Below are positions 7,877 through 53,922 of a stretch of DNA of 64,000 nucleotides, in pieces (position 1 is the first letter of the stretch; each line of letters starts with the position of its first letter). The DNA is taken from contig CAWCVB010000005.1 of NCBI GenBank assembly GCA_963798915.1, positions 25,291 to 89,290 on the forward strand, in the 5' to 3' direction. The notes beneath the pieces are model-generated. The model worked only from the letters and a program-made list of their open reading frames with translations. It ran no database searches and had not been told where the DNA came from. The stretch comes from an uncultured Gemmatimonadales bacterium (lineage in GTDB: Bacteria; Gemmatimonadota; Gemmatimonadetes; Gemmatimonadales; GWC2-71-9). The translations under genes and the position numbers were made by a program.

Positions 7877-7960
7877 AATGAGTCGAGGGTCAAGGGTCAA
7901 GGGTCGCGGGTCGGAGCTGCGCCATGGCTCTGTCCGTACAAGGCTCGGGGTGGCTCCGGA

Positions 7961-8200
7961 GCTGTCATCCCGAGCGCAGCGAGGGATCTTGCCCGCCGTG
8001 CTTCGGAGCCGGTTGAGTAGATCCTTCGCTTCGCTCAGCTGTCATCCCGAGCGCAGCGAGGGATCTTGCCCGCCGTGCTTCGGAGCCGGTTGAGTAGATC
8101 CTTCGCTTCGCTCAGCTGTCATCCCGAGCGCAGCGAGGGATCTTGCCCGCCGTGCTTCGGAGCCGGTTGAGTAGATCCTTCGCTTCGCTCAGGATGACAG
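7961..8200. repeat. Three identical 77-bp tandem units of a TGTCATCC...GGATGACA palindromic element
   Basis: Units start at 7961, 8038 and 8115; only the last carries the closing GGATGACA. Confidence 0.95.
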
Positions 8201-8209
8201 ATATTGTCT

Positions 8210-8285
8210 CCGACGACCGACGACCGACGACCGACGACCGCACGACCGCCGACCGACGACCGACGACCGACGACCGACGACCGCC
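8210..8285. repeat. Heptamer array (CGACGAC)n; C-rich partner of the GGTCRAG/GGTCGCG arm at 7880-7913
   Basis: About 10 units read directly. Confidence 0.9.
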
Positions 8286-8350
8286 GAGCCGCCGAGCCAA
8301 CGAGCCGCCGCAACCCTACATTGAACCTTTCCTTCTTCCGGAGACCCGCC

Positions 8351-44797: not shown

Positions 44798-46345
44798 ATG
44801 CCCACACCCACCCACGACGTCCTCATCATCGGCAGCGGGTTCGGCGGCGTCTTTGCCGCGGCGGGGCTGATGGACCGGGGATTGCGCGTCCTCATGCTGG
44901 AACGCGGCCGCCGGGTGACCCGGGGACCGGAGAACTGGGAGCCGGGTGCCGCCGCCCAGCTCTCCGAGCACTATCAGGAAGACACTCCCTATTTCATCAC
45001 CGACGATCACGGCTCGTCCACCACCGGGGGGTTCTTCTGCCTCGGCGGTCCCTCGGTGTTCTATGGTGGCGTCTCGCTGCGATATCGCGAGCGCGACTTC
45101 GGGCCCCATGCAAGCGTACCTGGTGACTCGGGCGCGGCATGGCCCTTCAGGTACGCCGAACTGGAACCGTGGTACTCGCGCGCCGAAGCAATGCTGGGAG
45201 TCGCCGGACGTGCGGGTGAAGACCCTACCGATCCATTCAGGAGCCAGGACTACGTGGCGGCGCCGCGTCCACTGGCGCCGATCTCGGCGCGCCTGGCGCG
45301 GGCGGCGAGGGAACTGGGCTACCACCCGTTCCGGTTGCCGCTCGCCATCAACTATGCCGGCGAGGGCCGGAACCCCTGCATCGAGTGCGCGACCTGCGAC
45401 GGATTTCCCTGCGCCATCGAGGCCAAGAACGATCTCGCCACCGCAGTGCTGCCGTCACTGGTCGAGCGCGGCCTCGAGGTGCGAACCGGTGTGGCGGTCA
45501 CGAAATTGCACATCGTCGACGGTCGACTGTCGACTGTCGACGTTGTTGATACGGCCACCGGTGCATGTGAGACGCTGCATGCCCGGCATTACATCCTCGC
45601 GGCCGGCGCCATTGCCACGCCGCACCTCCTGCTGGCCTCGGGCGCGGACGAACTGAGTCCTGCGCGCGAGGCGGTCGGCGCGTATCTCATGCGCCATTGC
45701 AATCGCATCGTGTTCGGGCTCTTCCTCAGGCGCCCCGATCCCGAGGGCCGGCATCACAAGCAGATCGGCATCCACGACCTCTACGGCGAGGCCGGTGGGC
45801 TGCAGCAACTGGTCACGCCACCGGTGTCGCTGGTCCGGGCCCAGATTCCCCGCGTTCTTGGCCCGGTCGCTGCCCGGCTGGTGCCGCATATCACCGGGTT
45901 CCTCGCCATCGCGGAGGACCAGCCGCAGGCCGGCAATCGCATCCGCATCGATGCGACGGCGCGGGACCGGTTGGGCATGCCGGTGGCCAGGATTACGCAT
46001 CACTACAGCCAACGTGATGAGCGCGCGGTGGATCGGCTGGCCGGGGCGGGGAAGCGAATTCTTCGTGCGGCGGGAGCGGTTGCGTTCTATCGTCACCGCA
46101 TCTGGACCTTCTCGCATGCCATCGGCACGGTGCGGATGGGGACCGATCCGGCGCGCTCGCCGCTGGACCAGCGCGGCCGCTATCGCGGACTCGCCAATCT
46201 CACCGTCACGGACGCGAGTGCCCTGCCCACATCGGCCAGCGTGAATCCCAGTCTCACCATTGCCGCCACCGCCTTTCGCGCCGGCACCCTGCTGGGCGCG
46301 GAGCTGGGCCAGACCCGTCACAACGCGGATATCCGCATCGCATGA
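44798..46345 (+). CDS. GMC-family FAD oxidoreductase
   Basis: GSGFGG, CIECATCDGFPC, HAIGTVRMG, VNPSLTI; start chosen 7 nt after TATTAT (alternative start 44789). Confidence 0.9.
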   Translation: MPTPTHDVLIIGSGFGGVFAAAGLMDRGLRVLMLERGRRVTRGPENWEPGAAAQLSEHYQEDTPYFITDDHGSSTTGGFFCLGGPSVFYGGVSLRYRERDFGPHASVPGDSGAAWPFRYAELEPWYSRAEAMLGVAGRAGEDPTDPFRSQDYVAAPRPLAPISARLARAARELGYHPFRLPLAINYAGEGRNPCIECATCDGFPCAIEAKNDLATAVLPSLVERGLEVRTGVAVTKLHIVDGRLSTVDVVDTATGACETLHARHYILAAGAIATPHLLLASGADELSPAREAVGAYLMRHCNRIVFGLFLRRPDPEGRHHKQIGIHDLYGEAGGLQQLVTPPVSLVRAQIPRVLGPVAARLVPHITGFLAIAEDQPQAGNRIRIDATARDRLGMPVARITHHYSQRDERAVDRLAGAGKRILRAAGAVAFYRHRIWTFSHAIGTVRMGTDPARSPLDQRGRYRGLANLTVTDASALPTSASVNPSLTIAATAFRAGTLLGAELGQTRHNADIRIA

Positions 46346-51396: not shown

Positions 51397-51417
51397 TCGG
51401 CTCGACAGCCCATGCCC

Positions 51418-53698
51418 CTACTTCCCGTCCACCCGACTTCCCGTCTTCCCGACTTCAATCACAAACGCATACTCCTCCGCCACCTCCCGCAGCATGTCGT
51501 AGCGCCCTGACGCGCCGCTGTGGCCCGCGCCCATGTGCACCCGGAGCAGCACCGGATTCCGGCTGGTGTTCATGGTGCGAAGCTTGGCGACCCACTTGGC
51601 CGGCTCCCAGTATCCCACGCGCGGATCGTTGAGGCCCGCCGTGACCAGCAACGCCGGATACCCCTTCCGCTCCACGTTGTCGTAGGGCGAGTAGCTGCGG
51701 ATGTAGTCGAAATAGTCCGCCTCGTTGGGGTTGCCCCACTCCTCGTATTCCATCACCGTCAGCGGGATGCTCTCGTCCAGCATGGTGGTGAGCACATCCA
51801 CGAACGGCACCTCGGCGACGGCGCCGGCAAAGAGGTCGGGCCGCTGGTTCAGCACCGCGCCCACCAGCAGCCCGCCGGCGCTGCCGCCCCACATCACCAG
51901 CCGGTCCGGGCTGGTCCAGCCGGTGGCGATCAGGTGCTCCGCCGACGCGATGAAATCGCTGAACGTATTCCGCTTCTCCAGGAGCTTGCCGTGGCGATAC
52001 CACGGGCGCCCCAGCTCCTCGCCGCCGCGCACGTGCGCAATCGCCACCACGATGCCCCGGTCCAGCAGACTCACCGCGTTGGAGGAAAAGACCGGTTCGA
52101 AGTTGACACCGTAGGCGCCGTAGCCGCGGAGGAGGAGGGGAGAGGAGGTCGACGGTCCACGGTCAACAGTCGACCGTTGACCGTTGACTGTTGACCCCTG
52201 CTCCCCATCCGCCCATCCCGCCCCTCCTGCCCATCCCGCCCCTCTCTCCACACCAGCGACACGGGTATCCGCGCGCCGTCCGCTGCAATGGCAAAATCCC
52301 GTGCGGTCCGGTACTGGCTCGCGTCGTAGCCAAGCACCGGCTGGCGCTTCCGCTCGTGCCAGGTCCGCGTCGCCATGTCATAGTCAATGACGGATGGCGG
52401 CGTGACCAGCGAGGTGTACACCAGCCGGAGCGTGGCCGAGTCGAATTCCGGGTTGGCGCCCGGCCGGACCGAGAACACCTCTTCCGGAAACTCGATCCGG
52501 TGATCCTCGCCGGTGCGGAGATTACGGATTGTCACCCGGGGTGTCGCGTCGGCCCGCTCCCAGATGACGAGATAGTCCCGGAAGGCGTCGACGGCGTCGA
52601 GTTTCACGTCATGATCGAAGATGGGTTCCAGGTCTTCGGTCTTCGGTCTTCGGTCGTCAGAGGGGTCGTCGGTCGTCGGTCGTCGGTCTTCCACTGCTCC
52701 CGACGACTGAAGACCGAAGACAGACGACCCGTCCAGCAGCATCTCCACCAGCTGAAAATTCTCCGCGCCCTCGTTGGTCACGATGAAAAGCCGCTCGTCG
52801 TGATGCTCCACCAGGTATTCGATCTGGGGCCGGCGCGGGATCACCACCTGGGGCGGCTCCAACGGGCGCTCGGCGTCGATGAGCCACACTTCGCTGGACG
52901 AGTGGCTGGCCAGATAGAGCCGGATGAAGCGGCGGCTGCGGGTGGTGTCGAGGCCGACGACGAAGCGGGCGTCCAGCTCGTCATAGATGATCGGATCTGA
53001 GTCAACGGTCGACGGTCTACGGTCTACGCTCGACTGTTGGCCGTCGACTGTTGACTGTTGACTGTTGACCGTCGACTGTCGACCATCACCAGCGCCCAGC
53101 TCATGCCTCATCACCCGCCACGGCCTCAGCGTCTCGTCCAGCGTGACATAGAACAGGTACCGCCCGTCCGCACTCCACTCGGCGCCGGCGGCAATACTCT
53201 GGATCGGGTCACCCAGCAGTTCGCCGGTGGCGATGTTCCTGACCGCCAGGTCGTATTTCTCGTTGCCATCGGTGTCGGTGGAATACGCCAGCAGGGTGTG
53301 GTCGGGCGAGGGCTCGAAGGCGCCCAGCCGGAAATAGGGCTGGTCCCGGGCCAGCGCGTTCTGGTCCAGCAGGATTTCTTCCGGAGCATCCAGCGAGCCG
53401 CGCTTCCGGCAGAGGATGGCGTACTGTTTCCCCTCCTCGGTGCGGCTGTAATAGAGCCACCCGTCCCTCAGCTCGGGGACGCTGAGGTCAGTCTCCTGGA
53501 TCCGCCCCAGCATCTCGGTGTACAGCTCACCGCGCAGGTCACCGCTGGCGGCAAACCAGGCATCGGTATGGGCATTCTCGGCCTCGAGATAGGCCAGGAC
53601 GTCGGGATCCTCACGATCGCGGAGCCAGAACCAGTCGTCGGTGCGGACGGCACCGTTGTGGGAGAGGGTGACGGGACGGCGCTGGGCATGGGGGGCAT
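51418..53698 (-). CDS. ptrB: Oligopeptidase B (S9A) with three repeat insertions and two 1-nt apparent deletions
   Basis: N-terminal RTDDWFWLRD..LEAEN, LRGYGAYG, HVRGGEELG, GGSAGG (Ser), NDPRV (Asp), AGH (His); frame restored by one C in the C6 run at 53690-53695 and one G near 52209. Confidence 0.9.
51421..51455. repeat. 8-bp array (CTTCCCGT/CTTCCCGA); right arm around Uma2, encoding the ptrB C-terminus
   Basis: Read directly. Confidence 0.8.
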
Positions 53699-53700
53699 GG

Positions 53701-53792
53701 GGTTAGTTGGCGAGTTGGCTGGTTGGCGAGTTGGCGAGTTGGTTAGTTGGCTAATTGGCGACCGTCGACCGTCGACCGTTGACCCTCGACCC
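53701..53792. repeat. G-rich 8-mer array (AGTTGGCG) followed by C-rich heptamers (ACCGTCG)
   Basis: Read directly, immediately upstream of ptrB. Confidence 0.85.
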
Positions 53793-53922
53793 CCGTAGCG
53801 CCGAACGGTCCCTCGGGGCAATCTTCCATGGGCGGCGAGCATGCCGCATCCACTGGCAAGATAGTCGGACTCTCGTGCTCCCCGGGTTGCGATCCCCCGT
53901 CGTTCCAGGGAAGAGGTTGGCA

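Follow-up and report, generated by a model that had tools for sequence, protein, structure and literature searches.

The gene for oligopeptidase B (PtrB) of an uncultured Gemmatimonadales bacterium raises the question of how three blocks of short repeat DNA came to lie within the coding sequence of a conserved enzyme, and whether that enzyme is still made. The gene lies on the minus strand at approximately 51418-53698 of a 64,000-nucleotide stretch of contig CAWCVB010000005.1 (assembly GCA_963798915.1, positions 25,291 to 89,290), referred to here in its full length as the window. The genome comprises 3.31 Mb in 17 contigs, with a G+C content of 66%, and the named PtrB homologues agree with its placement in the Gemmatimonadales. 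Our reading, to which we assign a probability of roughly two in three (0.68), is that arrays of the type seen in the spacers between genes have become translated and tolerated loops of PtrB, and that the frame defects seen in the gene are errors of the consensus sequence. The features on which the argument turns are the two parts of the gene and the three inserts:

52246..53702, minus strand: upstream open frame of PtrB, the beta-propeller part with inserts A and B (PF02897, E = 1.6e-85; 76% identity to relative P0003)
51421..52143, minus strand: downstream frame of PtrB, the catalytic alpha/beta-hydrolase domain (PF00326, peptidase S9, E = 5e-69)
53001..53084, minus strand: insert A, an imperfect hairpin made of 12 GTCGAC/GTCAAC-type heptamers (Tandem Repeats Finder (TRF), translation, folding, pattern count)
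52631..52729, minus strand: insert B, GGTCGTC/GGTCTTC units that pair with their complement in a hairpin of -54.6 kcal/mol (TRF, translation, folding)
52148..52245, minus strand: insert C, a block of G-rich nonamers (GGGCGGGAT type) and then a short heptamer hairpin, between SLVWR and PLLLRGYG (TRF, sequence, anchor comparison, folding)

Three repeat blocks in oligopeptidase B

All three blocks were located by TRF where the first-pass annotation, made from the sequence alone, had placed them. Insert A consists of period-7 arrays at 53001-53028 and 53008-53084, insert B of period-7 arrays at 52631-52688 and 52700-52729, and insert C of heptamers at 52147-52196 and nonamers at 52204-52241. The peptides quoted for the inserts are correctly translated: the 84 bases of insert A encode GRQSTVNSQQSTVDGQQSSVDRRPSTVD on the minus strand, and the insert B peptide begins SSVFGLQSS. 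It had also been claimed that A and B keep the frame and that C is one base short, and this is what the distances between flanking conserved anchors show, being 138 and 171 bases at sites A and B, both multiples of 3, and 146 bases at site C (remainder 2). Compared with relatives that lack the insert, A adds a net 81 bases (27 codons); the net gains at B and C are 75 bases (25 codons) and 77 bases (about 26 codons, one base short of frame).

The units of A and B are degenerate, with 78-79% matches in TRF, and both inserts form long imperfect hairpins (z = -4.2 and -3.7, respectively), with none of 200 shuffled sequences folding as well. Insert C taken entire folds no better than shuffled sequence (z = -1.4; 21 of 200 shuffles as good), pairing being confined to its heptamer part, where four units stand opposite three. 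A degenerate three-unit heptamer pattern, GTCRACNGTCRACNGTCRAC, has 22 matches in the window when at most one mismatch is allowed and none in 100 dinucleotide-preserving shuffles. In insert A, the units that form a stop codon if repeated in tandem (CGTTGAC, TGTTGAC and CGTAGAC) stand singly or in pairs at most, always in a phase without a stop, the remainder of the insert being made up of the stop-free units GTCAACA and GTCGACN.

The upstream open frame extends in full from 52071 to 53702 and the downstream one from 51418 to 52251, both on the minus strand. For comparison with solved structures we used relative P0003, which is 76% identical to the window protein, in place of the window's own broken protein. 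The best solved sequence match of P0003 is the Serratia oligopeptidase B 7ywp (E = 6e-162), with prolyl endopeptidases following at ~1e-60 or weaker, and the P0003 model matches the same structure with a target-normalised template modelling (TM) score of 0.94 (Foldseek). Oligopeptidase B enzymes owe their specificity for basic P1 residues to a pair of acidic residues. The catalytic motifs, which had been described as intact, are all found in the downstream frame, with Ser in GGSAGG (51880-51882), Asp in GLNDPRV (51625-51627) and His in GAGHSG (51520-51522). These three motifs, which we take to hold the Ser-Asp-His triad of PtrB, are nearly invariant among 66 homologues. One uninterrupted frame with a start codon is not found: the frame shifts in insert C and the ATG is out of frame, defects that are probably due to assembly error.

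To place the inserts among related enzymes, 37 PtrB rows were aligned, made up of four database proteins and 33 open frames of related genomes; loci L273 and L276, having no full open frame, were left out. In 29 of the 37 rows the loops are short at all three sites (7-10 residues at A, 17-21 at B and 11 at C), so that equally long but unrelated loops are not what orthologues generally carry here. Four rows (P0006, L003, L117 and L260) are extended at C only, with loops of 21-29 residues, and a further four (P0003, P0004, P0005 and the same-genus L002) are extended at all three sites, with 30-34 residues at A, 28-47 at B and 26-38 at C. The last four are intact relatives that carry their inserts in frame at every site (P0003, 761 amino acids; P0004, 744; P0005, 756; and locus L002). 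More widely, P0003-P0008 are uninterrupted proteins of 682-761 amino acids that span both domains, and the DNA spans at all three sites are multiples of 3 in L002, L003, L117 and L005. The same nonamer block occupies site C in L002, where it is in frame.

Identity to the window PtrB is highest in the rows with all three inserts (70-76%), followed by those extended at C only (64-67%); contig scans of genomes and metagenomes gave mainly distant relatives (25-52% identity), plus L117 at 66%. The simplest history would be one in which insert C was acquired first, in a wider clade, and A and B later, in a narrower one, an order read from the distribution of loop lengths and not from a rooted tree.

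At one and the same site, the repeat units are replaced between species while the two arms remain complementary to one another, complementarity being judged here from a few DNA sequences and without a formal covariation test. Site A is built of GTCGAC/GTCAAC units in the window and of GGTCGAG opposite CCTCGAC in L002 (hairpin of -65 kcal/mol), site B in L002 has AGCGCT-based units, and site C in L003 has GGACGCG opposite CGCGTCC (-62.5 kcal/mol). Peptide pairs in P0003-P0005 (SSV… opposite …DDRR, for example) stand in the same reverse-complement relation as the DNA arms.

To see where the inserts fall in the fold, we modelled P0003 with AlphaFold2 from 66 aligned sequences (mean predicted local distance difference test score (pLDDT) 84.2, predicted TM score 0.87). 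Regions with pLDDT below 50 are residues 211-224, 327-344, 346-357 and 490-504, which correspond to the three inserts, and the C-terminal residues 756-761. Each insert is modelled as low-confidence coil between two beta strands, and the phmmer alignment of P0003 to 7ywp breaks exactly at the three inserts. The model thus supports the view that the inserts would form loops between strands. Together with the in-frame inserts of the relatives, it bears out the earlier suggestion that the repeats create new peptide loops tolerated in frame. In the organism of the window they may accordingly be expected, on sequence grounds, to be translated as lineage-specific extra loops, which are probably floppy or disordered and hydrophilic, rich in Ser, Thr, Asp, Arg, Pro, Gln and Gly.

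Short arrays across the genome

The inserts draw on a large population of repeats. Strict arrays, with a period of 7, 8 or 9 and at least 3.5 copies, number 511 across the genome, in 443 elements and 97 unit families, and the PtrB units fall within the commonest of these families (GGTCGTC with 41 of the 511 arrays, GTCGAC with 38 and GGGCGGGAT with 21). These are short-unit tandem arrays, with 7-, 8- and 9-base units arranged head to tail in at least ~4 copies at many loci. They are mostly intergenic. A crude coding map accounts for 59.4% of the genome and for 19.6% of the array bases, and 30 of the 443 elements lie at least 150 bases deep in it; since the map undercounts genes, this depletion in coding sequence is a rough figure.

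Counting only elements with 180 bases of coding flank on either side, we found 20 that are read through in frame and three that break the frame. Eight elements have flanks in different frames, five being ordinary gene ends and the other three the gene-breaking cases. A looser screen for arrays within open reading frames (77 of 672 elements) was dropped as a count, as it returned mostly trivial two-copy repeats of 14-21 bases. In-frame arrays are found inside Pfam domains, including those of five Ser/Thr kinase paralogues, a sixth kinase and a GMC oxidoreductase. NadE, ThiC and a GH2 enzyme carry further ones in the linkers between domains. In the five kinase paralogues (contig C2, 154368-157343, 258749-261340, 264049-266670, 279954-282695 and 311984-314989) the array lies ~70-85 residues into the kinase domain, which points either to an old insert duplicated together with the genes or to a hot spot. 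The GMC oxidoreductase lies within the window; its N-terminal domain includes the in-frame translation (VDGRLSTVDV) of a GTCGAC-type heptamer array at 45515-45542.

The three gene-breaking arrays are PtrB insert C, one in a second DnaE-family gene (C2:502011-502077) and one in an ABC-ATPase-like gene (C5:22412-22443), which we take to encode an ABC ATPase from its LVLDEPTNHLD signature. G-rich nonamers are present in all three of the frame-broken arrays versus one of the 20 in-frame arrays, a split with a chance of 4/1771 (calculated by hand), and none of the 19 in-gene elements with only 7- or 8-base units is out of frame. Arrays in this genome carry ~10-14 indel positions per kb, reflecting either natural irregularity or consensus trouble. 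In 611 kb of the relative G009, of the same genus, we found no clearly frame-broken in-gene array, and the nonamer arrays within its genes are read through in frame. Two candidates for a frame break in G009 were set aside, one (L255) being the end of a gene followed by a new gene and the other (L224) being uninterpretable close to a contig end.

These counts bear on the idea that in-gene arrays are phase-variation switches, in which gain or loss of one 7-base unit toggles PtrB and the assembled state is 'off'. One more heptamer would indeed restore the frame of insert C as well as one base does, by taking the net insert from 77 to 84 bases. A switch of this type predicts out-of-frame elements among those with only 7- or 8-base units, the opposite of what is seen, and the degeneracy of the units in A and B disfavours frequent slippage. 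Moreover, PtrB is by general knowledge a cytoplasmic housekeeping-type peptidase and not a typical phase-variable surface function. We therefore consider switching very improbable.

Least probable of all is that the arrays are not translated as written, either because the hairpins are excised from the mRNA, as had been proposed in the first-pass annotation as the alternative to peptide loops, or because G-rich nonamers cause ribosomes to shift frame. Stable hairpins at A and B would suit the former, and frame breaks in three of the four in-gene elements bearing nonamers would suit the latter, with G-quadruplex-induced frameshifting being cited in the accessible portions of Rehm et al. (2015, PMC4692102). 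However, the inserts of all relatives are in frame and avoid stop codons, which sequence destined for excision would have no need to do, and removal at the RNA level is not supported. Nor does a single recoding mechanism fit, since PtrB would need a shift of -1 and the two other genes one of +1; the in-frame nonamer arrays of G009 genes also speak against it.

A more far-reaching proposal would be that the paired arrays are DNA or RNA hairpins actively maintained within reading frames, with the structure, and not the protein, being conserved and dictating the loop peptides, and that the G-rich nonamers are frameshift-prone spots that modulate or silence PtrB, the second DnaE-family polymerase and the ABC ATPase. 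We regard this as a long shot.

On the reading that we prefer, that of tolerated loops, PtrB would have gained three blocks of short arrays like those in gene spacers, with units of 7, 8 or 9 bases and frequently with two arms opposite each other. The arrays would arise by the same process as the spacer arrays, possibly slippage plus inverted duplication. They could land or expand anywhere, and would be purged from genes unless their length is in frame, they contain no stop and the resulting loop falls between beta strands; those surviving in genes would be translated into near-neutral loops. Turnover would be rapid, the units changing among species with arm complementarity retained, and complementarity might be kept either by a mechanism that produces inverted copies or by selection on the hairpin.

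Arrays also abut the gene at both ends:

53705..53791, no strand assigned: arrays directly upstream of PtrB, with 8-base units (AGTTGGCG) at 53705-53761 and 7-base units (CGACCGT) at 53759-53791 (TRF)
51416..51456, no strand assigned: 8-base array over the last PtrB codons (…VGKTGSRVDGK) and the stop at 51418-51420 (TRF, translation)

The upstream arrays fold no better than shuffled sequence (z = +1.6), and a search of the whole window against Rfam at the gathering threshold gave no match. As the downstream array covers the last codons and the stop, the C-terminal tail of PtrB is also repeat-encoded. The tails of relatives are likewise repeat-like and differ in sequence (VGKTGRREDGR, VGRDGQDGRDGQ… and VGQGEQGEQGE).

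Frame break and start codon

Two positions are at issue in the frame of PtrB:

52207..52214, minus strand: single 8-base unit GGGCGGAT amid 9-base units (sequence)
53690..53698, minus strand: probable start ATG (53696-53698), one base off the PtrB frame, and the six C that come after it (53690-53695) (sequence, comparison with relatives)

Both frames are open throughout insert C, and the 8-base unit is most likely the place of the break. The first-pass annotation proposed that adding one G to this unit repairs the insert. This agrees with the periodicity of the array and with the relatives, four of which have site C spans of 132, 123, 102 and 69 bases, all multiples of 3, but frame errors across the assembly and the defect at the start had not been considered. 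Its account of the PtrB frame was correct as to the break in insert C and overlooked the second defect, namely that the start ATG is out of frame. The PtrB frame contains no ATG, GTG or TTG from the TAA at 53703-53705 as far as an internal Met at 53513. The ATG at 53696-53698 shares its sequence context with the start of the G009 orthologue, and relatives begin MAPNAPRHP (L002) and MPPDP (L003, with the same CCCCATGCCCCCC context). A seventh C after the ATG would yield an in-frame MPPHAQRRP. The one-base deficit in C and the shift at the start are most likely errors in the consensus of an assembly prone to indels, and the organism therefore probably makes an intact enzyme of ~760 residues.

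Evidence for a general load of such errors comes from the remainder of the genome. The rpoC gene, which lies outside the window, is split over two frames by one extra base at C5:489509-489513, in a conserved …RDLERVL/YY… segment. We also surveyed frameshifts by comparing open frames of the same-genus G009 with this genome using tblastn. A first sample gave five shifts in 43,700 aligned residues; two of its first six candidates were discarded, C1:137100 being intergenic and C1:217150 a shadow frame. The second sample, of 81,922 aligned residues, yielded 22 candidate rows that reduce to 20 distinct junctions, that of PtrB among them. Nine junctions lie inside Pfam domains of intact G009 orthologues, four of them in one SprA-like protein (C10). 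Overall, ~25 further shifts were found in ~377 kb of compared coding DNA, or roughly one per 15-25 kb, which is far more than expected of a free-living bacterium. This load fits the odd pairing of a 17-contig assembly with a completeness of only 84.8%. With frameshifts in rpoC and throughout conserved genes, the frame break in PtrB carries little weight.

The neighbouring coordinates of the same contig hold a separate oddity: rpoB (C5:488160-488515, also outside the window) has ~118 extra residues between model positions 1076 and 1106, which are helical-looking and rich in Ala, Glu and Lys and are not made by an array.

The most serious competitor to an assembly artefact is that PtrB is a real and very recent pseudogene, which lost one base in the nonamers of insert C and another by the start codon after a period in which the inserts were tolerated. 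We hold this to be unlikely, though it has points in its favour: the two frame defects are independent and fall in one 2.3-kb gene, the arrays are rich in indels, and two more non-essential-looking genes (C2:502011 and C5:22412) are broken in nonamer arrays. Against it, neither open part of PtrB contains a stop codon. For the part downstream of the break, comparisons with L002, L003 and L117 give ratios of non-synonymous to synonymous substitution rates (dN/dS) of 0.10-0.13, the value between two intact relatives being 0.115; the ratio of the upstream part (0.21-0.25) equals that between relatives. The decay that the first-pass annotation had named as a possible ground for rejecting its reading is thus not seen in dN/dS. 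That the essential rpoC and many other conserved genes are also frameshifted in this assembly, and that the G009 sample is free of clearly frame-broken in-gene arrays, likewise argue against a pseudogene.

Several points nevertheless weigh against translated loops combined with consensus errors. A search for sequencing runs with window 51400-53830 listed none, nor any source of RNA data, so that the frame break stands as a probable error. With two defects in 2.3 kb, PtrB is above the average rate of error, and a recent pseudogene explains two lesions more easily. The breaks in in-gene arrays are tied to G-rich nonamers and are non-random, which may be systematic consensus trouble or biology. 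A run of at least four identical bases is present in 5 of 15 junction windows versus 24% of random 40-base windows. As the errors inspected are not linked to homopolymers, a homopolymer undercall at the PtrB start would be atypical of the errors here. The placement of the loops is taken from a model of the relative P0003, and their translated state is deduced from reading frames in every organism compared. A homopolymer cause was also considered as a general rule for the assembly errors and was dropped, being unsupported by the count of junction windows.

Weighing both sides, we consider it probable that the break in insert C and the out-of-frame start are assembly artefacts, rather unlikely that PtrB is a real recent pseudogene, and most improbable that either switching or recoding is at work.

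Relation to known repeat systems

The first-pass annotation likened the inserts to Rickettsia palindromic elements (RPEs). RPEs and other intragenic miniature inverted-repeat transposable elements are palindromic repeats found in frame in unrelated housekeeping genes, where they are translated and compatible with the fold, according to a review of such elements (PMC10969869). In outcome the likeness holds: the PtrB inserts are also made of the genome's own repeat DNA, and such DNA stands in frame in conserved genes at positions compatible with the fold. In structure it does not, since an RPE is a dispersed element, about 100-150 bp long, whose family has its own conserved consensus and peptide, whereas the PtrB inserts consist of 7-9-base units in tandem and lack a conserved full-length consensus, the unit at the same site varies between species (site A in the window and L002) and there are 97 families genome-wide. 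The PtrB inserts behave like RPEs without being members of that group.

Short-unit repeats of cyanobacteria go by the name of STRR. A closer structural parallel is provided by the heptameric repeats of Xanthomonas and Nostoc/Anabaena, which likewise form many short-unit tandem loci and are depleted in coding sequence, as far as can be judged from the accessible portions of Rehm et al. (2015, PMC4692102). Those described there are single-unit, G-rich arrays studied for G-quadruplex formation, whereas here there are 97 families, often arranged as facing hairpin arms. Repeat-encoded loops in conserved enzymes are absent from the portions of PMC4692102 examined and are present here. We found no paper on heptanucleotide or palindromic intergenic tandem repeats of Gemmatimonadetes in a literature search that left subscription journals uncovered.

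The neuO gene of E. coli K1 offers a third comparison. Its coding heptanucleotide array is translated only at a copy number that is a multiple of three, and the heptad peptides are unstructured in the crystal (PMC3046976, accessible portions). The 12 units of insert A match the count of the neuO+12 allele. However, neuO has one perfect, slippage-prone array that acts as an N-terminal switch, whereas those of PtrB are degenerate, internal and paired in hairpins, with no sign of switching.

Set beside these systems, the new aspects of the present case are three sites in one enzyme, an order of acquisition that can be proposed for them and a frame break that calls for explanation. Short hairpin-forming arrays that occur genome-wide appear to spill into genes and so to add new, disordered loops to a conserved enzyme. 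The PtrB genes of this clade form a natural series for studying the neutrality of such loops and the cause of arm complementarity, one that allows the acquisitions to be dated relative to one another and in which units are replaced rapidly between species. They also teach a practical caution, as frame breaks within arrays of contiguous but indel-prone assemblies give no ground for calling pseudogenes or recoding without the reads.

Repeats of a different size are also present in the window. A perfect 77-base unit occurs three times at 7960-8192, each copy with a GTCATCCCGAGCGCAGCGAGGGATC-type palindrome, and heptamer arrays lie on either side of it (7882-7913 and 8210-8303).

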